A program made the position numbers and the translations under genes. Positions 14,077 to 32,000 of a stretch of DNA of 32,000 bases are shown here, piece after piece. Every line of letters starts with the position of its first letter. The stretch's first letter is position 1. The notes beneath the pieces were generated by a model. It worked only from the letters and a program-made list of their open reading frames with translations, was not told the origin of the DNA and ran no database searches. Source of the stretch: Nitrosomonas europaea (GTDB lineage Bacteria; Pseudomonadota; Gammaproteobacteria; Burkholderiales; Nitrosomonadaceae); assembly GCF_900167395.1 (NCBI RefSeq), contig NZ_FUWK01000013.1, forward strand, positions 20,798-52,797, given 5' to 3'.

Positions 14077-15970
14077 ATGATGAATCCAAATGATACCAGT
14101 GACACCGAAACCCACGAACCGCCAGCAGATCGTTTTTGTGATCTGGTCATGAAGGGAGGGATCACGAGCGGGGTGGTCTATCCACGCGCGATCAGGCGGC
14201 TATCGGAGCATTATCGATTCAGAGGGATTGGAGGCACTTCGGCCGGTGCAATCGCAGCGGCAATTACTGCGGCGGCCGAATATCAACGCCGTGAAAACAA
14301 TGGTTCTCGCGAAGGTTTCAATCTGCTTGGCAGTCTTCCCGAGGAATTGGGAAGTGAGATAAAAAAGGGTAAATACAAGCTTCTCAGTCTGTTTCAACCG
14401 CAGCCAGCGACACGCCGGTTATTTGCGGTATTGGTCAGAACACTGAACAAAAGCAGCACAAAAAACCGGTGGTTCAGTCTATTCCAGGGGTTACTGATAG
14501 CGTATTGGCCTGCGACTGTACTTTCGATGATAGTCGGCTTTGGCAGTTGCTCAAAGCGGGGCATGGCTGGCTGCATTCTTGCTGCTGGTTATAGCACTGC
14601 TACTCAGCATAGGTTATTGGGTTTACTCGGACATTACCGGGAAAGTGGTCGCCAATGGATTCGGATTATGCAACGGGATGTCCGAGGAGAAAAATATCGA
14701 GGCCCTGACACCCTGGCTGCACAGCAAGATTCAAAAGGCAGCCGGGCGAGATGCCAAGGATAAACCGTTGACATTTGGTGACCTGTGGGATGCAAAAGGA
14801 TTTCCCCCGACGTGGCGATCGATACCGGAAGGAGTAAGAAAACGTTCTATCGATCTTCAGGTATTTTCAACCAATCTTGCTCATGGACGACCTTACGTCT
14901 TCCCTTTGGCCGAGCCGGAAACTGGAGAAAGTCGATTCAGAAGTCACGAACCCCTGTATTTTACTGAAGCAGAAATGGAGAAATACTTTCCTCCGGAAGT
15001 GGTGCAGTGGATGGTGGAGAAATCTCCTGCAAAGTCGAAAGAAGATGGAAAGGATATGCTTGAGTTGCCAGAACCAGAGCATTTTCCCGTGGTGCTGGCT
15101 ACCCGGATGAGTCTTGCTTTTCCATTCCTGATCTCAGCCATTCCCTTATATGCTGTAGATCGTGATCTCACGGATGAGCGGAAGTTTCGCCGGTGCTGGT
15201 TTTCAGATGGAGGAATCAGTTCAAATTTTCCTATCCACCTTTTTGATGGTCTGGTTCCAGTTTGGCCTACATTCGGGATTCATTTAGAACCCGCAATAAT
15301 GAGAAATCGGAAAAAGTTTTATTTACCGTCCAGGTACGATGAAGGCTATGAGGAATCCTGGAGCCTGTTTGCGGAAAAACCCGAACCTGCTGGCATATTA
15401 GGGGGATTTATCAGTGCCATTATCAATACGATGCAGAACTGGAACGACAATACCGTCAGGCTTATGCCCGGTTTCAGAGATCGTGTCGCTCGCGTCAGGC
15501 TCGAGGATGGAGAAGGCGGTATGAACCTGAATATGGAGCCCCACATCATCGAGGATCTTGCTGAGCGAGGGGAGGAGGCTGCCAATGAGCTGATCCAGCG
15601 TTTTGCATCTTCCAATGGAAATGTAGCGGTTGGCTGGGATGAGCACCGTTTTGTTCGATTCAATAATCTCCTCAAGATGATGAAAGCGCGAGTGCCAAAT
15701 CTGGTGGAAGCACTCGGTGATGACTGTAAGTATGCAACCAGAATGGAGGATTTACTGGAGAAATTGAGCTGCGCAACGGATGATAACGGCAAGCTGATTC
15801 CTCCACCTGGCTATGAAGAGCCAATGACTCAGCAGGAAAGGGAGGCATACAAAATTATAGTAGCCGCATTAAATGCATTGGCAACAGTGATGAATAATCA
15901 GAAATACAATATCCCATTCAAACCGATTCCAAAACCGGAACCGGAGCTCAGGGTCAGACCACCCCTCTAA
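14077..15970 (+). pseudogene. Patatin-like phospholipase, interrupted by a +1 frameshift near 14534-14545
   Basis: ORF 14077-14763 carries the oxyanion motif MKGGITSG and the nucleophile GGTSAG (Ser55). ORF 14540-15970 is in frame +1 relative to the first and carries the catalytic Asp motif FSDGGISSNFP. After about 14545 the first frame becomes Arg-rich nonsense, while the second frame continues with plausible TM helices. The second frame has a TAG at 14531-14533, so the shift lies within 14534-14545. A GGAGG SD precedes ATG 14077. Confidence 0.75.
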
Positions 15971-16984: not shown

Positions 16985-18211
16985 ATGAACCAGCCCGTTC
17001 CCAACCGCCCTGCTGCCAGGCCCGACACACCACCAGCATCTTATCCGCAAGAGGAGGCAGATGCGCGCGACTTTGCCGAGTTCATCGCGGGGCAAGACCC
17101 ACTCGACGCGGCTGCTGCCGGCTGGGTGGTACGCCGCCAGGACGGGCTCACACCCGAGGAAGAAGCCGAGCTTCAGGAATGGCTGGCCGCCGATCCGGCA
17201 CACGCCAGAGCATTGGCGCAAGTGGAAGACGTCTGGAGTCGCATGGATGAATTGCCCGACGAAGGCGTCGTGGCGCTCAAGGCCGGGCTACCGTCACATA
17301 AAGCCGGTACCGCGTTGCCGCCTTCGGTCGCGATACCTACTCCGGTGCCAGTGGCACCCGAGCCTCAGCATCATCCTCGGCCCTCATCGTCTATTCAGCC
17401 GGCCTCCCCCGGCCGTCGTTCCTGGCTGATCGGCCTGGGCCGCTTCGTGCCCCAGATCACGGCGGCAGCCGTGGCTTTCAGCGTGGTGAGCGTCGGCTGG
17501 TATGGCTGGAGCACCTGGCAGCACCAGCCCACCTTCCAGCAGTCGTTTGCCACGGCACGTGGTGAGCAGAAAAAAGTGAATCTGCCCGATGGCAGTACCC
17601 TGTGGCTGGATACCGCCACTCGGGCCGAAGTTGCCCTGTACCGCCAGCGGCGCGAGGTGCGTCTGACTGACGGACAAGCGCTCTTCGCCGTACAGTCCAA
17701 TCCCGACCAGCCCTTCGATGTGCTCACGGGTGGTACCCGTATCACCGTGGTCGGCACCCGTTTCTCGGTGCGGCGCACGCGCAGCGGGCTCGGTGCCGAG
17801 GGCAGCGTCAGCGTGGTGGTGGAAGAAGGGCGTGTGCGCGTCGCCAGCCGCTCGGCGGCGCACAAAATGGATAGCAGCTCATCTGTCGAACTCAGCGCGG
17901 GCCAGTCCATCATTGCTGATGCGGCGGGTGCGCTCGGGCCGGTGAATCGCGATGATGCCCCGGCCGCCACCTGGCGCGAAGGGCGCGTCAGTTTCAGCGG
18001 TACTCCGCTGATGCAGGCGCTGGCTGAATTCGAACGCTATGGCGACACTGGCCTCGTCATCCGTGATCCAGCGGTCGCCGCGCTAAAGGTCAATGGCAGC
18101 TTTGATCTGCGGCAGATCGGCGCCTTTGCCCGGGCTTTGCCTCGGGTCCTGCCGGTGCAGTTGAGCACGAGAGACGGACAAACGGAAATCATTGCTGCTC
18201 CCGGCGGCTGA
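16985..18211 (+). CDS. FecR-type transmembrane anti-sigma factor / signal transducer
   Basis: 408 aa. It has an N-terminal anti-sigma region, a Pro-rich linker, a single TM (WLIGLGRFVPQITAAAVAFSVVSVGWYGW) and a periplasmic FecR domain (LPDGSTLWLDTATR...LTDGQALF.V). Its genomic context is a FecI/FecR/receptor trio. Confidence 0.88.
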   Translation: MNQPVPNRPAARPDTPPASYPQEEADARDFAEFIAGQDPLDAAAAGWVVRRQDGLTPEEEAELQEWLAADPAHARALAQVEDVWSRMDELPDEGVVALKAGLPSHKAGTALPPSVAIPTPVPVAPEPQHHPRPSSSIQPASPGRRSWLIGLGRFVPQITAAAVAFSVVSVGWYGWSTWQHQPTFQQSFATARGEQKKVNLPDGSTLWLDTATRAEVALYRQRREVRLTDGQALFAVQSNPDQPFDVLTGGTRITVVGTRFSVRRTRSGLGAEGSVSVVVEEGRVRVASRSAAHKMDSSSSVELSAGQSIIADAAGALGPVNRDDAPAATWREGRVSFSGTPLMQALAEFERYGDTGLVIRDPAVAALKVNGSFDLRQIGAFARALPRVLPVQLSTRDGQTEIIAAPGG

Positions 18212-18372
18212 GGCCAGCCGCTCATCGCACCGCAACTGAGGGTTTGAGCAGCCCTGGGCGGATCTGATCACAAAAAAATTGAAGGAAGTTCAGGCGGCGA
18301 CCTCAACACATTGGCGGCTCGTGCGTCAGCACACGTAGAAACCTCATTTTTTCTACTGTGGAGATCTCATTC

Positions 18373-20778
18373 ATGCCGCGACTCACCCCGCTCGCCCTGG
18401 CCGCTGCACTGGCCTTGCCGTCATTGGTATTCATCGTTTCGCCAGCTCATGCCCAGACGTCTACCGCTATGCCTATCTCTCTGCCCGCGCAGTCACTGGG
18501 CGCCGCGCTGAATGAGCTGGCCTGGCAGGCAGGCTTGCAGTTGATGGTGCATCCCGATCTGGTGGAAGATAAGCAGGCGCCAGCCGTATCGGGCAGCCTG
18601 ACGCCACGGCAGGCGCTGGACAGGGTGCTGGCCGGCAGCGGACTGAAGGCGGATATCCAGGGGACGGAAGTCATCATCCGACGGATGCCTGCAGCGGAGT
18701 CCGGCGTGACTACGCTGGTCGAGATGAAGGTGACGGCGCAGGGCATGGATGATGGTACCACCGAAGGCACGGGCAGCTACACCACGCGCAGCATGGGCAC
18801 GGTCACCGGGCTGGTGCTGTCGCCGCGTGAAACACCGCAATCGGTCAGCGTCATCACGCATCAGCGTATCGAGGATCAAAGGCTGGTGTCAGTGGCCGAG
18901 GCGTTGCGCAACGCACCCGGTGTTTCATACAAGGCGATTGATCGTGGTCGTGGCGGCACTACCGTGCGCGGCTTCAGCCTTACCAATTTCCAGATCGACG
19001 GCGTACCGACGATCCTCGATGCCAATATGGACATCGACAACGCCAGCATCGCGATCTACGACCGTATCGAGGTGGTACGCGGCGCCACCGGCTTGCGCTC
19101 CGGCGCGGGCGATCCGGGGGCGACTATCAACCTCGTGCGCAAGCATGCAAACAACAAGGTGTTCACCGGCAATCTCATGTTGGAGGCAGGTTCCTGGAAC
19201 CGCTACGGCGCCACGGCCGACCTCACCGCACCGTTGAATACCGACGGTTCGGTGCGTGCCCGCGTGGTGGCCAATTACCGCGATCAGGGCGGCTTTATCG
19301 ATTTCGAGCAGACTCGAACTACGGTGTTCTACGGCATTGTCGATGCTGACCTCGGCAACCGCACGCGTCTGAGCCTGGGCTTCAGCGATCAGCGCAACGA
19401 GCGCAAGGGAACCTATTGGGGTGGCCTGCCGGTCTGGTATGCTGACGGCACACGTACTGAGTGGGACCGTTCCAAGACTACGGCGGCCAAATGGCATCGG
19501 TGGGATGATCACTTGCAGAGCGTGTTCGCGTCGCTCGATCATTACTTCGATGGCGGCTGGTCGATTCAGGTCAACGCCCAGTACCTGCGCGCCAAGGAAG
19601 TCACCAATCTGCTTTGGTTCGGAGGACTGCCAGATCGCACTACCGGCCTGGGCATGAGTGCGTGGCCATACTACTACCGGGGTAAGCCGCGACAATACCA
19701 GATCAATATCCAGGCTGGCGGTCCCTTCGAGCTGTTCGGTCGCACGCATGAACTGATGGTTGGCGCGGTGCACATGCACGGCAAGAGCGGCTGGGATTCG
19801 GCGGATCAGATCGGCGACCCCGCGCCGGTCGGCGATTTTAATCACTGGGACGGCTCCTATCCCGAGCCGGTTTATGGCCCGACGTATGTCGGTCGTGGAC
19901 AGACCGAAACCCAGTCAGCCGCCTACGCTGCCGCGCGCTTGAACTTGAGCGACCCGCTCAAGCTGATCGTCGGCACACGCGTCACCCGCTTCGACCGCGA
20001 CATCACCGCCATGTGGGGGGCACCCCCCTACGAAATGCGTGAATCTGCCGTCTTCACGCCGTATCTTGGCGTGTTGTACGACCTGAGCACCCATCTGACC
20101 GCCTATGCCGGCTACACCAGCATCTTCTCGCCACAGAACTTGCGCGACCGCAACGGCGGCTATCTCGATCCGCTCGAAGGCCAGAGCTATGAAGCAGGCC
20201 TCAAATCCGAGTTCTTTGATGGCAATCTCTACGCCTCGGCATCCGTGTTTCGCATTCAGCAGGAGAACTTCGGCGTGCTTGATGGCGGCACGCTGGTGCC
20301 CGGCACCACCGAGTGGGCATACCGTGCCGAAAAAGGGGTGAAGAGCGAAGGCTACGAACTGGAAATCACGGGCAGGATTCTCCCGCGCTGGGATGTCAGC
20401 CTGAGCTGGACACAGTTCTCGGCCAAGAACCGTGAAGGTGAGCGCGTTGCATTCCGGTATCCGTCACGTATGCTCAAGCTGTTCACCAAGTATGATCTGT
20501 CTGGTGCCTTAAACGGCCTCAGCATCGGTGGCAATGTTGAATGGCAGAACGACATGCCTGACTGGCGTGCGAACCCTGCCACCGGCCTGCAAGAGAACGT
20601 CGGCCAGTCGGCTTTCGCCACCGTGGGGCTGATGGCGCGCTACCAGCTCAACAAATCACTGTCAGTGCAGGCCAACATCTATAACCTGTTCGACAAGCAA
20701 TACTACGAGGGTTCGTGGGGAACCTTCACCTATGGCGAGCCGCGCCGGATTTTGGCCAACCTGACGTACCGGTTCTGA
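18373..20778 (+). CDS. TonB-dependent siderophore receptor with an N-terminal STN signalling domain (FecA/FpvA-like)
   Basis: The signal peptide ends in AHA. The STN-like segment is ISLPAQSLGAALNELAWQAGLQLMV...ALDRVLAGSGL. A plug and barrel follow, with C-terminal LTYRF. The ORF track starts at GTG 18358. ATG 18373 is preferred because GGAG lies upstream. Confidence 0.9.
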   Translation: MPRLTPLALAAALALPSLVFIVSPAHAQTSTAMPISLPAQSLGAALNELAWQAGLQLMVHPDLVEDKQAPAVSGSLTPRQALDRVLAGSGLKADIQGTEVIIRRMPAAESGVTTLVEMKVTAQGMDDGTTEGTGSYTTRSMGTVTGLVLSPRETPQSVSVITHQRIEDQRLVSVAEALRNAPGVSYKAIDRGRGGTTVRGFSLTNFQIDGVPTILDANMDIDNASIAIYDRIEVVRGATGLRSGAGDPGATINLVRKHANNKVFTGNLMLEAGSWNRYGATADLTAPLNTDGSVRARVVANYRDQGGFIDFEQTRTTVFYGIVDADLGNRTRLSLGFSDQRNERKGTYWGGLPVWYADGTRTEWDRSKTTAAKWHRWDDHLQSVFASLDHYFDGGWSIQVNAQYLRAKEVTNLLWFGGLPDRTTGLGMSAWPYYYRGKPRQYQINIQAGGPFELFGRTHELMVGAVHMHGKSGWDSADQIGDPAPVGDFNHWDGSYPEPVYGPTYVGRGQTETQSAAYAAARLNLSDPLKLIVGTRVTRFDRDITAMWGAPPYEMRESAVFTPYLGVLYDLSTHLTAYAGYTSIFSPQNLRDRNGGYLDPLEGQSYEAGLKSEFFDGNLYASASVFRIQQENFGVLDGGTLVPGTTEWAYRAEKGVKSEGYELEITGRILPRWDVSLSWTQFSAKNREGERVAFRYPSRMLKLFTKYDLSGALNGLSIGGNVEWQNDMPDWRANPATGLQENVGQSAFATVGLMARYQLNKSLSVQANIYNLFDKQYYEGSWGTFTYGEPRRILANLTYRF

Positions 20779-26780: not shown

Positions 26781-27508
26781 TGGCCGGTTTGCGTTCTCTG
26801 ATCTACATGCTGCTGCAGGCAATTATTACACCGCCGTATGCGCTGTTTACGCTGATGTGTTTCGCGTTGCCTCCTCATTCCCGCTATCAAGTCACTTATG
26901 GCTGGACCCGGCTGATGCTGTTCATGCTGCGTACCATCTGCGGCCTGCGTTATGAAGTGCTGGGACGGGAAAATATCCCGGATCAGCCATCGATCATCCT
27001 TTCCAAGCACCAGTCCGCCTGGGAAACACTGGCCTTGCAGCAGATTTTTCCACCGCAGGTATGGGTGCTGAAAAAAGAACTGCTGCGCATTCCATTCTTC
27101 GGCTGGGGGCTTGCCATGACCAGCCCGATCGCGATCGACCGCAGTGCCGGCAAAGCAGCGCTGGAGCAGATCGTAGAGCAGGGAAGGGAACGGTTGCAGC
27201 AGAATTTCTGGATCGTCGTTTTCCCCGAAGGTACGCGCATTCCCCCTGGCAAAAAAGGCAAATACCGCATTGGTGGCGCCTGGCTGGCTGTGCATACCGG
27301 TGCGCTGGTCGTACCGGTGGCGCACAATGCCGGGGAATTCTGGGGCAGAAATTCCTTCATCAAATATCCCGGCACCATCACGTTGAGTATCGGCCATCCG
27401 ATTCATCCGGATGGCATCGAAGCAGGCGAGCTGATGGCACAGGCGGAAGCATGGATAGAAGCTGAAACTGCACGCATCAGTCGCCCGTCACACCGGCCGA
27501 TCGAATGA
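26780..27508 (+). CDS. plsC: 1-acyl-sn-glycerol-3-phosphate (lysophospholipid) acyltransferase
   Basis: 242 aa. It has an N-terminal TM, the acyltransferase block KHQSAWETL and the FPEGTR motif. Its start overlaps the gmhB stop. Confidence 0.8.
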   Translation: MAGLRSLIYMLLQAIITPPYALFTLMCFALPPHSRYQVTYGWTRLMLFMLRTICGLRYEVLGRENIPDQPSIILSKHQSAWETLALQQIFPPQVWVLKKELLRIPFFGWGLAMTSPIAIDRSAGKAALEQIVEQGRERLQQNFWIVVFPEGTRIPPGKKGKYRIGGAWLAVHTGALVVPVAHNAGEFWGRNSFIKYPGTITLSIGHPIHPDGIEAGELMAQAEAWIEAETARISRPSHRPIE

Positions 27509-27701
27509 TCGTGATATTGACAATCATCACCTGAGCTGTTTTGGCCATTATCCGAGCCATCGTTTTCTTCTCCCGCACGAATTGAAATAATCTGTTTTCT
27601 GCAACAGGCAGAGAGTATTATTTGATTGACATAGTCGGATCAGATACACGATCAGAATCGATCTGACAGAAAGCGGGACTATTCAGTCAAGGAGAAAAAA
27701 C

Positions 27702-30146
27702 ATGGCCACAGAAAAACGGAGTTCCCGTTCCACCAGCAGCAAATCATCCGGCAGCAAATCAGCTGGTACTGGAAAGACCAGACAACCCGGCGTCGAACAC
27801 ATCAGTCCTTTTGCTCAATTTTCCCGTTCTGCAGCCAGCACTAAATCTGCCGAATTTCCATCGATCTTGAACAAGGAAGGCAGTTCACCGGAAGTCGGTA
27901 CGATCGTGTATATCCATGGCATAGGAAACAAACCCGTGGCATCGATCCTGAAATGCCAATGGGATACGGCACTGTTTGGTGCACCCATGGGAGATCGCAC
28001 CCGCATGGCGTACTGGGTGGATCGTAATCGTTACCCCAAACCCAAGGACGCCAGTTGTGCCGACAAGGATACGCTGCCGGAGGATGCAGGTGGAATGGGG
28101 GTACAGGCGCTGCAGGAAAACGAGCTGGAGCCGGAAATCAAACTGAGTGCGGCCGAGCGCAAAATCATGGCCGCACTGGAAGAACGTCTGCGCGCAGGAG
28201 AAAAGCAGCCCGGCGGTGTCAATGTCAAGGTACTGCCTCTGCCAGAGAGTGTGCGATTGTGGATTACCCGCCGTATTACCAAACTGTTCCTCAAGGATGT
28301 GCAGGATTTCTTTTTCGATGAGCACAAGCGCAACGTGATGGAACAGTCGCTGCGTGATCGTCTGGATGTCGGCGGTGGCCCGTTCATCGTGGTTGCTCAC
28401 AGCCAGGGCTCGATGATCGCCTATCATGTACTGCGCCAGTTGAAAAAAGCTGACTGTGACGTACGCCTGTTCATCACTATCGGTTCACCCCTCGGTATTC
28501 AGGAAGCGCAGGATGTGCTTGGCAAGATCGGTTCCGGCAAACCGCTTGCCGTGCCGGAATGTGTCGATCGCTGGCTGAATGTGGCTGAACGCCTCGATCC
28601 CGTCGCACTTGATTCAGATCTTGGTAACGATTATCAGCCTAACAGTCACGGTGTGAAGATCGAGAATCACGCCGGTTTGATGATAAATCCTGAGTGGGCA
28701 TCCAATCCCCATTCGGGTACGGGTTATCTTTCACTCGATATCGTGCGTCAGGCTGTGCGTGAGACAGCAGGTCCTACCTTCAGCAATCCGGTGGGTCGCA
28801 ATATCCTGATGAAAGATCTGGTCGACAATATCGAGGATGGCCACCGTGAGCAGAGACACCCGACACTGATTCAACTGGTTTCAGATGACGATGATGCCAC
28901 CTCGCTGGATGAGGTGCGTGATCGCCTCAGTAACCTGATAAAGAATGTCCTGATTTTCAACAACGCTGAACCCGAAGAAGGGCGCATCCAGCTTATGCGC
29001 CGTTTCATCTCGGCGGATCTGACCCGGAGTGAAATCGAGGAATTACGTTCGCACTGCAGTACATTGAAAATCGATCGCGTGTGGCGTAATGCGCTCAAGC
29101 GTACGCTGCTGCACCAATCGGCACACACGATCCAGGTGCGCCCGGCCAATCTGGGTTATGGTGCCTGTGGCCAGAATATCGCCTGGGCCGTGCTCGATAC
29201 CGGAATCGCTGCTGATCACCCGCATTTCAAAAAACACAACAATGTGGTCGCACAGTGGGATTGCACCGGCAGTGGCAGCCCCAGGGAACTGAGACTCGGC
29301 GACAGCGGGTTTGGCACACTGGATGGTCATGGCCACGGTACCCACGTTGCCGCCATCATTGCAGGCACGCTGACCTTACCGCACGATGAAAAGGATAAAT
29401 CTGAAATCCTGCTGCAGGGAATGGCACCCGAGGCCAGGCTTTACGGTTTCAAGGTGCTCAAGGACAACGGTAATGGAGAAGATGCTTTCATCATCAAGGC
29501 GCTCGATACCATTGCAGAACTGAATGAACGTGCCGGTAAACTGGTCATCCATGGTGTGAATCTCAGCCTGGGCGGCAATTTCGATCCCAGTGTTTTCGGT
29601 TGCGGTCATACGCCACTGTGTCAGGAACTGCGACGCCTGTGGCGTCAGGGAGTACTGGTATGTCTCGCGGCTGGCAATGAGGGTTACGCGCTGCTCGATT
29701 CCGCCAGTGGTGTGATACCAGCCAACATGGATCTTTCCATCGGTGATCCGGCCAATCTGGAGGAAGCCATTTCTGTTGGCTCGGTGCACAAAACCAATCC
29801 GCATACCTATGGCATTTCCTATTTCTCCTCACGCGGCCCGACTGCCGATGGACGCATGAAACCGGATCTGGTTGCCCCGGGTGAGAATATTCTCTCGGCA
29901 CGCCATCAGTGGCCGAAAAGCAAGCTCACCATGCGTAATGCGTATGTCGAGATGAGTGGTACCAGTATGGCTACCCCGCATGTTTCGGGATTGTTTGCAG
30001 CTTTTCTTTCCGCCAGACGGGAGTTCATCGGCTATCCGGATCGCGTCAAAACACTGTTGCTGCAGCATTGTACCGACCTGGCTCGTGATCCTTACATTCA
30101 GGGTAAAGGGATGCCCAATCTGGTAAGAATGATCATGAATACCTGA
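27702..30146 (+). CDS. Cytoplasmic fusion protein: lipase-like alpha/beta-hydrolase domain plus S8 subtilisin-family peptidase domain
   Basis: 814 aa, with SD aaggag upstream. The N-terminus is polar and S/K-rich with no signal peptide. Hydrolase motifs are YIHGIG, VVAHSQGS (Ser234) and ITIGSPLG. S8 motifs are AVLDTGI (Asp499), HGHGTHVAA (His545), NLSLGG and SGTSMATPHVSG (Ser755). Confidence 0.85.
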   Translation: MATEKRSSRSTSSKSSGSKSAGTGKTRQPGVEHISPFAQFSRSAASTKSAEFPSILNKEGSSPEVGTIVYIHGIGNKPVASILKCQWDTALFGAPMGDRTRMAYWVDRNRYPKPKDASCADKDTLPEDAGGMGVQALQENELEPEIKLSAAERKIMAALEERLRAGEKQPGGVNVKVLPLPESVRLWITRRITKLFLKDVQDFFFDEHKRNVMEQSLRDRLDVGGGPFIVVAHSQGSMIAYHVLRQLKKADCDVRLFITIGSPLGIQEAQDVLGKIGSGKPLAVPECVDRWLNVAERLDPVALDSDLGNDYQPNSHGVKIENHAGLMINPEWASNPHSGTGYLSLDIVRQAVRETAGPTFSNPVGRNILMKDLVDNIEDGHREQRHPTLIQLVSDDDDATSLDEVRDRLSNLIKNVLIFNNAEPEEGRIQLMRRFISADLTRSEIEELRSHCSTLKIDRVWRNALKRTLLHQSAHTIQVRPANLGYGACGQNIAWAVLDTGIAADHPHFKKHNNVVAQWDCTGSGSPRELRLGDSGFGTLDGHGHGTHVAAIIAGTLTLPHDEKDKSEILLQGMAPEARLYGFKVLKDNGNGEDAFIIKALDTIAELNERAGKLVIHGVNLSLGGNFDPSVFGCGHTPLCQELRRLWRQGVLVCLAAGNEGYALLDSASGVIPANMDLSIGDPANLEEAISVGSVHKTNPHTYGISYFSSRGPTADGRMKPDLVAPGENILSARHQWPKSKLTMRNAYVEMSGTSMATPHVSGLFAAFLSARREFIGYPDRVKTLLLQHCTDLARDPYIQGKGMPNLVRMIMNT

Positions 30147-30190
30147 GCAAGAGCCGGCCAGGTCGCTCTTGGGTTGTCTGATTATTAAGA
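30030..30190 (+). repeat. Direct repeat copy 1: 3-prime end of the S8 gene plus its downstream tail
   Basis: The coding part 30030-30146 aligns without gaps to 31044-31160, with 106 of 117 nt identical (hand alignment). The similarity resumes at gggttg.c.gattattaa after the stop. Confidence 0.85.
30148..30171 (+). terminator. Possible terminator hairpin after the S8 fusion gene
   Basis: caagagc cggccaggtc gctcttg has a 7-bp stem and a weak T-tail. Confidence 0.3.
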
Positions 30191-30218
30191 TAACCCGTGT
30201 GTTGCCGCTCCGGCGGCC

Positions 30219-30241
30219 AATATGCCCCGCTGGAGCGAGGC
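30219..30241. repeat. 23-nt hairpin repeat, copy a
   Basis: aatatgccccgctggagcgaggc is embedded in a longer imperfect palindrome, ggccaatatgccccgc tgga gcgaggccatattttggcc. It matches 30985-31007 at 22 of 23 positions. Confidence 0.6.
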
Positions 30242-30412
30242 CATATTTTGGCCACTCAATAACATAATAAATGGGCATTTTAAGCTGCGTTTTTAACGCA
30301 GAAATGGCAACGCAGGTAGTTTTTCAGAGGTTTTTTAAGCGTCTAATCACATACCTATGAGTATTACTATAAAATATGACTATGTAGATTAATAAATAGT
30401 ATGAGGAATACC

Positions 30413-30643
30413 ATGACTCATAGAGTGACTATTACGCTCGACGCAGAAACATTTGCTTTTCTGAACGATGTTGCAAGTAGTAATCGTAGCGCCTATGTTA
30501 ATCAGCTCTTAAAACAGGATCGCAAAAATTTCCTGCAGGCAGCGCTACGCAAAGCGAATCAGGAAGAGGCAGAAGATACAAACTACCAGGAAAAATTACA
30601 GGCATGGGAAAGTACGCTGTCAGATGGATTAGCCAATGACTGA
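30413..30643 (+). CDS. Ribbon-helix-helix (CopG-like) antitoxin
   Basis: MTHRVTITLDAETFAFLNDVASSNRSAYVNQLLKQ is a typical RHH beta-strand plus helices. The stop overlaps the toxin ATG (ATGACTGA). The ORF track starts at 30401, but AGGA there serves as an SD for ATG 30413. Confidence 0.8.
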   Translation: MTHRVTITLDAETFAFLNDVASSNRSAYVNQLLKQDRKNFLQAALRKANQEEAEDTNYQEKLQAWESTLSDGLAND

Positions 30644-30977
30644 TTTCAAGCAGCGGGATATTTACTGGATCGATCTTGAACCGACAAAGGGTGCGGAAAC
30701 AAGAAAATTAAGGCCATGTGTAATTATTCAAAGTGACCTGGTTAACGTTCAATCCAGAACAGTGATAGTTGCCCCTTTGCTCCTTCAGCATAAACCCTGG
30801 CCATTTGCAGTGAATCTGGAGCCCACAGAAAAAAATGGTCTGGATAAGGATCGTCATATCAACCTCAAGCAATTACGCGCGGTTGATATTTCACGCATTG
30901 GAAAAAAACAAGGCAGGCTTGAAAATAGATACAAGGATCCTATCAAAGCAGCTTTAATGATCATCTTTGATTTGTAA
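30636..30977 (+). CDS. MazF/PemK-family type II toxin (mRNA interferase)
   Basis: 113 aa. RDIYWIDLEPTKGAETRKLRPCVIIQSD...IVAPL is the hallmark PemK/MazF N-terminal pattern. It is translationally coupled to the upstream RHH gene. Confidence 0.88.
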   Translation: MTDFKQRDIYWIDLEPTKGAETRKLRPCVIIQSDLVNVQSRTVIVAPLLLQHKPWPFAVNLEPTEKNGLDKDRHINLKQLRAVDISRIGKKQGRLENRYKDPIKAALMIIFDL

Positions 30978-30984
30978 GCTGGTA

Positions 30985-31007
30985 AATATGCCTCGCTGGA
31001 GCGAGGC
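30985..31007. repeat. 23-nt hairpin repeat, copy b
   Basis: aatatgcctcgctggagcgaggc contains a perfect 7-bp stem (gcctcgc tgga gcgaggc). It starts 8 nt after the toxin stop. Confidence 0.6.
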
Positions 31008-31043
31008 GGGCTGCATTCTCACACGGAGCGTGGGAACTCAATT

Positions 31044-31160
31044 GGCTATCCGGATCGCGTCAAGGCACTGCTGCTGCAGTATTGCACCGACCTGGCCCGT
31101 GATCCCTATATTCAGGGTAAAGGAATGCTTAATCTGGTAAGAATGATCATGAATACCTGA
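31044..31160 (+). pseudogene. Orphan 3-prime fragment (last 38 codons plus stop) of a second S8-peptidase allele
   Basis: It translates to GYPDRVKALLLQYCTDLARDPYIQGKGMLNLVRMIMNT*, versus GYPDRVKTLLLQHCTDLARDPYIQGKGMPNLVRMIMNT* at the end of the intact gene. There is no upstream homology or start codon. Confidence 0.8.
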
Positions 31161-31354
31161 AAGAAAGTCAGCCGGGACACATCGCCGGGTTGCCAGATTA
31201 TTAAAAAATAAAATCATGACAAAATTTTTGGGCTGATTATGACTCAAACATAAAATAGTCAAAATAGTAATCGTATTGATCAAAAGTGCTTCCACCAGAA
31301 GAGTAGGTCACTACTCTTTCGTTCTTGACTGAGCAGTTCTAAATGGAGGGCATC

Positions 31355-31864
31355 ATGAGACGCATATACTTTTTGGTTCCAGAGATCGTTACTACCCGAA
31401 AAATTGTTGATGATTTGCTTCTGGCAAAGATTGAAGAGAGGCATATTCATGTGATCGCAAAACGTGGTACGCCGCTGGAAGATTTGCCGGAAGCCAACCT
31501 GCTGCAGAAAACTGATTTTGTTCCTGCTGTTCAGCAGGGAATTGCACTGGGTGGCGCCACAGGGCTGCTTGCCGGGCTGGTAGCCGTTGCGCTGCCACCT
31601 GCATCAGCAGTCATTGCCGGCGGCATTCTGCTGGCAACCACACTGGCGGGAGCCGGTGTCGGGTCGTGGGTAAGTGGCATGATCGGTATGACCATCGGCA
31701 ATCGGCGCATTAAAGAATTTGAGGAGGAAATCGAAGCAGGAAAACTGCTGGTACTGGCGGATGTGCCAGTCAATCGAGTCGATGAAATTGAAGATCGGGT
31801 GAAACAGCATTTACCGCAAATCGAGGTGATGCGAACAGAACCCAAGGTTCCGGCATTTCCTTAA
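31355..31864 (+). CDS. Hypothetical membrane protein with a glycine-rich TM hairpin
   Basis: 169 aa from ATG 31355, with GGAGGG 4 nt upstream. The track ORF starts at 31343. The central Gly/Ala-rich hydrophobic segments are GIALGGATGLLAGLVAVAL and GGILLATTLAGAGVGSWVSGMIGM. Confidence 0.65.
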   Translation: MRRIYFLVPEIVTTRKIVDDLLLAKIEERHIHVIAKRGTPLEDLPEANLLQKTDFVPAVQQGIALGGATGLLAGLVAVALPPASAVIAGGILLATTLAGAGVGSWVSGMIGMTIGNRRIKEFEEEIEAGKLLVLADVPVNRVDEIEDRVKQHLPQIEVMRTEPKVPAFP

Positions 31865-31871
31865 AACGAAT

Positions 31872-31901
31872 ATCCGGGCTCAGAACAGAGCCCGGATGTT
31901 T
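31872..31901 (+). terminator. Rho-independent terminator
   Basis: atccgggctc agaaca gagcccggat forms a perfect 10-bp stem, followed by gttt, 8 nt after the stop codon. Confidence 0.6.
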
Positions 31902-32000
31902 ATCATAGAAAAATGGATGACTTCACTACATTTGCAATGATGAGGTGTAGTAGTTCAGATTTGATCTGACAGCAGGTCTTGCCAAGAGGTGGGATTACCC

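Follow-up and report, generated by a model that had tools for sequence, protein, structure and literature searches.

Protease-licensed death effectors have recently emerged as a dominant logic of bacterial immunity, and in every described system of this kind, to our knowledge, the protease carries the sensor and the effector on which it acts is a separate protein. The caspase domains of VMAP/MoxR conflict systems always occur with a neighbouring alpha/beta-hydrolase, so that the hydrolase-caspase pairing was a prediction of that work (Kaur et al., eLife 2020, PMC7159879), and the same study described trypsin/S8/NucA operons as "System 3" (PMC7159879). LcHydrolase of Lysobacter capsici is an inactive zymogen that is cut by LcCaspase after R73 and R117; E. 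coli is killed by the N- and C-fragments together, for which the middle piece of 4.7 kDa (~44 residues) is not needed, and the nearest relatives by HHpred are lipases and oligopeptidases (Evans et al., bioRxiv 2025, PMC12642450). The gene described here joins an alpha/beta-hydrolase and a subtilisin-type (S8) protease in one chain of 814 aa. It lies at positions 27702..30146 (+ strand) of a 32,000 nt stretch of Nitrosomonas europaea DNA, referred to as the window (NCBI assembly GCF_900167395.1, contig NZ_FUWK01000013.1, positions 20,798-52,797, forward strand). The reading that we favour, with about even confidence, is that its product works in the cytoplasm as a protease-effector module in a single chain, a sensor-less version of the described protease-activated hydrolase systems. 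The protease-activated alpha/beta-hydrolase module is the known kind; what is new is the single-chain, S8-based, sensor-less architecture.

Domain architecture of the fused protein

The open reading frame (ORF), which begins with ATG in the ORF list of the window, is real, and full-length homologues of the window protein are 56-96% identical. Its product consists of a disordered tail, an alpha/beta-hydrolase, a propeptide-like module and an S8 protease, in that order. An earlier sequence-only reading of the window had proposed a fusion, free of a signal peptide, of an intact lipase/esterase-like hydrolase and an intact S8 protease, and this proposal was confirmed by the analyses that follow.

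Invariance was called from an alignment of 28 homologues (56-92% identity). The hydrolase hallmarks named in the sequence-only reading, YIHGIG (H72-G73), AHSQG (H233-S234-Q235-G236) and IGSPLG (G261-S262-P263-L264-G265), were all found and are invariant in 28/28, as are D299 and H337. In the larger set of fused homologues (n=159) H72 is invariant, and S234, D299 and H337 are present in 152, 157 and 156 sequences, respectively. The oxyanion motif H72-G73 (27915-27920) falls in an N-terminal hydrolase fragment of residues 60-123 (27879..28070, +; mean pairwise identity 73%), and the triad residues S234 (28401-28403), D299 (28596-28598) and H337 (28710-28712) fall in a C-terminal fragment of residues 176-360 (28227..28781, +; 66% identity). 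Among 41 distant fused homologues, seven carry G or E where S234 is expected but retain H72, G236 and mostly D299/H337; these may be inactive hydrolase variants.

A Pfam profile check, proposed in the sequence-only reading for both halves of the protein, gave a strong match for Peptidase_S8 (E 4e-44), whereas the alpha/beta-hydrolase profiles stayed below threshold. All curated Pfam alpha/beta-hydrolase families were below their gathering thresholds in the N-terminal half, the best being Abhydrolase_6 (17.3 bits against 26.3); PGAP1, LCAT and Thioesterase matches were likewise below cutoff, and the sub-threshold hydrolase matches centre on the nucleophile elbow. The fold was instead identified from a structure model of residues 1-490, built from 75 diverse sequences (predicted local distance difference test score, pLDDT, 81.6; predicted template modelling score, pTM, 0.83), in which residues 60-360 form an alpha/beta-hydrolase. 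Foldseek comparison of the model with the PDB and with viral models returned alpha/beta-hydrolases only, with E 1.7e-4 for 2zyr and E 1.9e-7 for an enzyme of this type from a phage; lipases of A. fulgidus and of the rumen, PGAP1, LPLA2 and APT1 were among the matches. Since the matches are all alpha/beta-hydrolases and their scores are weak to moderate, the fold is confirmed and has no close solved relative, so the structural check proposed for the N-terminal half came out in favour of a hydrolase. As judged from the model, residues 60-360 are confirmed as a lipase/esterase-type alpha/beta-hydrolase with an intact Ser-Asp-His triad.

The two hydrolase fragments are separated by a hypervariable acidic segment, residues 124-175 (28071..28226, +), which varies from 51 to 83 aa in length among homologues and has a charge of -3 and an identity of 24%, against 66-76% in its flanks. 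Low-pLDDT loops border it at residues 129-133 and 173-176 of the 1-490 model. Basic residues are frequent at both borders in the family: position 135 is R in 93/159 fused homologues, and K or R occupies position 176 in 147/159 (K176 in the window protein), followed by [VIL]-L-P-[LF]-P. Depending on the boundary chosen, the hydrolase fragments of the window protein would measure ~64-75, 41-52 and 185 aa, compared with 73, 44 and ~180 aa in LcHydrolase. By analogy, the segment 124-175 is a candidate removable inhibitory fragment. Its correspondence to the excised LcHydrolase fragment is a putative one, argued from size, position and family context.

Residues 385-465 (28854..29096, +) are predicted to form a beta-alpha-beta-beta-alpha-beta module at the position of the subtilisin I9 propeptide. 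Its elements in the model are a strand at 386-392, a helix at 402-419, a two-residue strand at 429-430, a strand at 435-440, a helix at 442-449 and a strand at 457-462, with block-mean pLDDT of 88-97 across residues 381-460. The sequence-only reading had described a helical segment of about 90 aa in front of the S8 domain, a description that the mixed topology of the model replaces. The module accompanies the S8 domain in 55/56 fused representatives, and in the model it has both the position of an I9 propeptide, immediately ahead of the S8 domain, and its topology. It is followed by a junction of residues 466-489 (29097..29168, +; 71% identity), which lines up with the boundary between propeptide and mature enzyme in subtilisin BPN' and is the expected autoprocessing region. 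In the hhalign alignment of residues 378-814 with pro-subtilisin BPN', the window sequence HQSAHTIQVRPANLGYG pairs with a 20-residue BPN' stretch, and cleavage is inferred to take place within the junction.

The S8 protease domain proper comprises residues 490-814 (29169..30143, +), with D499 at 29196-29198, H545 at 29334-29336, the oxyanion residue N620 at 29559-29561 and S755 at 29964-29966. PF00082 (Peptidase_S8) matches residues 491-800 with 151 bits, against a cutoff of 21.8. All four residues are invariant in the 28-sequence alignment, as expected of a member of family S8, and the claim that every S8 catalytic motif is intact therefore holds. The domain is 33% identical to subtilisin BPN' (hhalign probability 99.7%), and its nearest solved structure is PDB 3afg, labelled subtilisin-like serine protease (E 1e-34), which we take to be the secreted Tk-SP of Thermococcus kodakarensis. 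The PADLOC model "subtilase" (PDLC03014) matches with E 8e-75 and still scores 242 bits with the S8 region alone; since the match is confined to the S8 domain, it was taken as a domain-level match only. The PADLOC IetS match is weaker (E 1e-15) and also limited to the S8 domain.

The first 59 residues (27702..27878, +) form a disordered, basic, K/R/S/T/A-rich tail with pLDDT below 50. Among homologues the tail is 43-63 aa long, with a mean pairwise identity of 19% and a median charge of +7, and it is missing from stand-alone relatives of the hydrolase. The first 55 aa of 118 homologues have a median net charge of +5 and contain no signal peptide (highest 12-residue Kyte-Doolittle mean 1.92, median 0.91), and no Sec, Tat or lipoprotein signal was found in the same 118 proteins. 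The lack of a signal peptide and lipobox reported in the sequence-only reading is matched in these homologues, and signal peptides in the homologues, which that reading had named as a finding that would speak against it, were present in 0/118. Because no signal peptide was found in the 118 homologues, the protein is inferred from its sequence to be cytoplasmic.

Relatives, distribution and genomic setting

Residues 1-480 were searched against 1.84 billion representatives, which gave 1,630 relatives. Among the best 150 of these, 56 are hydrolase-module-S8 fusions and many are stand-alone proteins of ~300 aa. Other architectures were a C11-hydrolase-S8 protein of 1203 aa (P0125), a hydrolase-trypsin-non-specific endonuclease protein of 896 aa (P0242) and a protein of 975 aa with an S41 domain ahead of the hydrolase (P0251). 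By hhalign, the window hydrolase matches a stand-alone clade that is paired with caspases (probability 99.6%, E 2e-24), and phmmer links it to the stand-alone proteins P0240 and P0213 (E 1e-36 to 5e-41). The gene of P0240 is followed by genes for an EAD1-Trypsin_2 protein and a STAND NTPase, and that of P0213 by a Trypsin_2 gene.

Genomic contexts of 12 stand-alone hydrolases were inspected, and in 8/12 the hydrolase gene either adjoins a protease gene or shares an operon with one. A caspase gene adjoins the hydrolase gene on pTiCG920, and trypsin-like protease neighbours occur in Agrobacterium, Rhizobium, Sinorhizobium and two metagenomic contigs, one of them with an EAD1 adaptor and a STAND NTPase. 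On plasmid pCpl of Sinorhizobium meliloti the hydrolase shares an operon with trypsin-endonuclease, CHAT and S8 genes. In a further 3/12 contexts the neighbour is an uncharacterised protein of 580-700 aa. In the two of these that come from Streptomyces, an AAA ATPase is encoded next to it, with a WD40 or TIR-like protein after that, and in the third the protein stands beside other conflict-system genes. Of the operons recorded with the hydrolase domain (loci L094 and L106), one has EAD1-trypsin and STAND NTPase genes and one has trypsin-endonuclease, PAS-GAF, CHAT and S8 genes. These sequence comparisons show homology of the window hydrolase to stand-alone hydrolases encoded beside caspase, trypsin, CHAT or S8 genes. 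The window protein has both a hydrolase linked to a protease and homology to protease-adjacent hydrolases, two of the features by which such a module would be recognised.

The distribution of the fusion was determined by scanning 185,579 species-representative genomes with the alignment of close homologues as the query. Full-length fusions were found at 363 loci, with identity of at least 49%, in at least eight phyla, the carriers including Beta-, Gamma- and Alphaproteobacteria, Acidobacteriota, Gemmatimonadota, Ignavibacteria, Planctomycetota, Chloroflexota, Methylomirabilota and Myxococcota. This sporadic but broad occurrence at high identity points to horizontal spread. No copies of the family on plasmids, in phages or in IMG/VR were found in the searches.

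In the window, the gene is preceded by a PlsC-type acyltransferase gene that stops at 27508, leaving a spacer of 193 nt; the spacer of the sequence-only reading is thus real, its length having been given as 190 nt. The gene has its own Shine-Dalgarno sequence, as that reading had stated, namely AAGGAG at 27689..27694 (+), with the ATG 7 nt further on. A terminator-like hairpin found by a consensus scan at 27593..27617 (+) would suggest a separate transcription unit, on weak evidence, the number of terminator-like sites from that scan being not above chance; no promoter was found upstream of the gene in a simple sigma-70 scan. The homologue in Nitrosomonas eutropha lies behind the same lnt-glyQ-glyS-gmhB-plsC block. 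Fourteen Xanthomonadaceae species (loci L070-L090; e.g. L075 9327-12956 and L088 9317-13213) have downstream neighbours in common, and in 4/4 of the Xanthomonadaceae loci scanned for tRNA genes the transfer-messenger RNA (tmRNA) gene ssrA lies ~300 nt upstream of the homologue. At L075 smpB follows ~150 nt downstream, placing the gene between ssrA and smpB. Phage integrase and tail genes were also seen beyond ssrA at this locus. In Malikia, and only there (loci L004, L005, L024 and L025), the homologue is followed by an Amidase_3-like gene and then a GerMN-domain gene, with gaps of 10-16 nt.

Downstream of the gene the window carries a toxin-antitoxin (TA) cassette, in which a small antitoxin-like ORF (30401-30643) is paired with a gene for a PemK/MazF toxin (30636-30977; E 4.8e-28). 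The last ~120 nt of the gene and 16 nt past its stop are duplicated with 86% identity (30027-30162 and 31041-31176) on either side of the TA pair, and the inserted stretch between the duplicates spans ~30189-31031, so that the TA module and recombination scar noted in the sequence-only reading are both real. In the closest Nitrosomonas relative (L064) the 3' end of the gene runs directly into the downstream region without the cassette, which marks the TA module as an insertion specific to the lineage. A 173-aa ORF at 31343-31864 (+), with a Gly/Ala-rich hydrophobic centre and no Pfam match, is kept downstream of the gene in the same relative. A match to the proteobacterial small RNA psRNA2 at 31864-32000 (-), which scores 106 bits in Rfam against a gathering score of 65, is cut short by the window edge. 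Elsewhere in the window, the overlapping ORFs 14077-14763 and 14540-15970 (+) match the N-terminal (E 1e-8) and C-terminal (E 1e-4) parts of a patatin-like phospholipase domain and look like a single gene that a frameshift has broken in two. The block at 16985-20778, with genes for a FecR-like protein and for a TonB-dependent receptor with an STN domain, has 61-66% G+C, compared with ~45-57% elsewhere, and is probably an acquired iron-uptake unit.

Proposed mechanism and rival explanations

If the gene encodes a protease-effector module, the propeptide-like module (385-465) would help the S8 domain to fold and would then inhibit it, until removed by a cut near 466-489. The freed S8 protease would cut the hydrolase of its own or of a neighbouring molecule on both sides of ~124-175, near 135 and K176, and excision of the middle segment would unmask the hydrolase for attack on an ester or peptide substrate. 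Growth arrest or cell death would be the likely outcome, as part of an abortive-infection or stress response. As there is no sensor domain, a trigger would have to work through the propeptide-like module or the basic tail, or else through expression or stability. The "protease-gated lipase" of the sequence-only reading is largely right as regards gating, which agrees with the protease-paired relatives and with the double-cleavage zymogen (PMC12642450); its lipid substrate is not supported. With effector, putative inhibitor and protease in one sensor-less chain outside defence islands, the architecture raises the questions of how such a switch stays off and turns on, and whether protease-effector modules were taken over for stress physiology. 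The family would also be a compact system for finding the substrate of this hydrolase family, with processing, inhibition and activity followed in one protein.

A number of results weigh against the protease-effector module. All 814 residues are accounted for by Pfam and the model, and neither the protein nor a conserved neighbour supplies a sensor domain. The window protein has Q, not R/K, at position 135, and R-G at ~73 and ~117, the LcHydrolase motifs, occurs in 0 collected proteins of 250-340 aa. The I9 profile PF05922 gave no match in a Pfam scan of 24 family members, a PDB profile search returned no pro-subtilisin among its matches, and hhalign against the BPN' propeptide gave a probability of 0.08%; with these three sequence tests negative, and topology and position remaining, the module is called propeptide-like and not I9. 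The full-length AlphaFold2 model, made from 28 close homologues, has a pLDDT of 57, too poor for domain docking, and one close stand-alone relative (P0198, 1/12 contexts) lacks a protease neighbour. When the ORFs around the gene at 80 loci were clustered (ORFs of >=70 aa and of 25-90 aa), no partner gene, large or small, proved to be conserved across lineages; the clusters that did appear were Xanthomonadaceae synteny or an artefact of antisense ORFs over the conserved 3' end. Among 135 neighbours from 26 lineages, 166 Pfam families were found, mostly housekeeping and none more than three times, and PADLOC detected about one real defence gene (PD-Lambda-1) besides generic helicase/cyclase matches. 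The stable synteny in Nitrosomonas and Xanthomonadaceae and the very high conservation resemble a useful core-like gene, less a typical defence gene. The sequence-only reading had seen an accessory defence-type locus here and had said beforehand that a lack of defence-gene enrichment around the family would count as refutation; with about one real defence gene among the neighbours in 26 lineages, no recurrent partner, stable synteny and a TA insertion that is lineage-specific, this part of it is not supported for the family. The gene could alternatively encode a domesticated, non-lethal cytoplasmic bifunctional enzyme of ordinary physiology, which might for example turn over proteins, lipoproteins or storage material under stress. 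Its hydrolase and protease would act jointly or each on its own, and any processing would be no more than maturation. The housekeeping neighbours and near absence of defence genes, the lack of a recurrent partner or a sensor domain, the conserved positions after lnt-glyQ-glyS-gmhB-plsC and between ssrA and smpB, the identity of at least 49% across phyla and the absence of plasmid or phage copies would all suit such an enzyme. We nevertheless consider it rather unlikely, for the homologous stand-alone hydrolases belong to conflict systems that also contain proteases, STAND NTPases, TIR and nuclease genes, the characterised example, LcHydrolase, is a death effector (PMC12642450), occurrence at 363 loci in 185,579 genomes and many phyla indicates horizontal transfer and not an ancient housekeeping role, and the hypervariability of the middle segment is in keeping with an inhibitory piece that can be removed.

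Classical propeptide subtilases are extracellular, the nearest solved relative (3afg) is presumably a secreted enzyme, and several cysteines are invariant among the 28 close homologues, all of which would agree with a protease/esterase exported by a non-classical route and acting outside the cell. This is very improbable, given that export signals are absent from the 118 homologues, conserved secretion genes are absent nearby, the C-terminus is strictly conserved in the 28-sequence alignment and not signal-like, and the cysteines are not conserved in distant family members (159-sequence alignment). The PADLOC "subtilase" and IetS matches bring to mind a known subtilase defence system, either an IetS-like protease of IetAS or a gasdermin-activating subtilase; they are confined to the S8 domain, however, and the NCBIfam IteS equivalog NF042956 scores 41 bits on the window protein against a cutoff of 900. 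The remark in the sequence-only reading that no partner ATPase is present was correct, no ATPase neighbour being found here or among the further lineages that were examined, and the IetA/IetS analogy drawn there does not survive these two results. IetAS membership was rejected on the same grounds, a gasdermin-protease system was rejected because no gasdermin-like gene lies beside the window gene or in the other lineages examined, and we regard a known system of either type as scarcely credible. A more far-reaching version of the protease-effector module, which we think improbable but not fanciful, would make the gene a complete suicide or stress switch by itself, stably retained in the chromosome, with the propeptide-like module and basic tail in the role of separate sensors. 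Such a switch might fire on degradation of the propeptide or on binding of the tail to foreign nucleic acid or a damaged membrane. The smpB/tmRNA position in Xanthomonadaceae could tie the module to translation or proteotoxic stress, and not to phage sensing alone.

Comparison with described systems

The likeness to "System 3" comes from distant relatives of the hydrolase, which occur in such operons or fusions (P0242; S. meliloti pCpl); unlike these, the window gene has no nuclease, trypsin or operon partners. With IetAS the window protein shares a signal-less S8 protease and weak PADLOC IetS matches, but it lacks the IetA ATPase, and IetS has no hydrolase domain. Like the pro-subtilisins (BPN', 3afg), it has an S8 catalytic domain with a beta-alpha-beta-beta-alpha-beta module of ~80 aa upstream, collinear with the propeptide; unlike them, it has no signal peptide, carries 360 aa of tail and hydrolase ahead of the module, and shows no significant I9 similarity.

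From the LcHydrolase/LcCaspase pair the window protein differs in being one polypeptide and not two genes, in having an S8 protease with a propeptide-like module in place of a caspase or trypsin, and in lacking a sensor (WD40, STAND or VMAP) in the protein or a conserved neighbour. It also has, unlike LcHydrolase, an extra basic disordered tail, and its neighbourhood is housekeeping and not a defence island. The likeness to LcHydrolase rests on layout and family context, the R-G motifs of LcHydrolase being absent among the collected proteins. In both cases an alpha/beta-hydrolase of ~300 aa with an intact triad is physically linked to a protease, and lipases and esterases are nearest, by Foldseek here and by HHpred for LcHydrolase (PMC12642450). 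The window protein, like LcHydrolase, has a variable middle segment, which resembles the excised 4.7-kDa piece in length and placement and is bordered in the family by basic residues.

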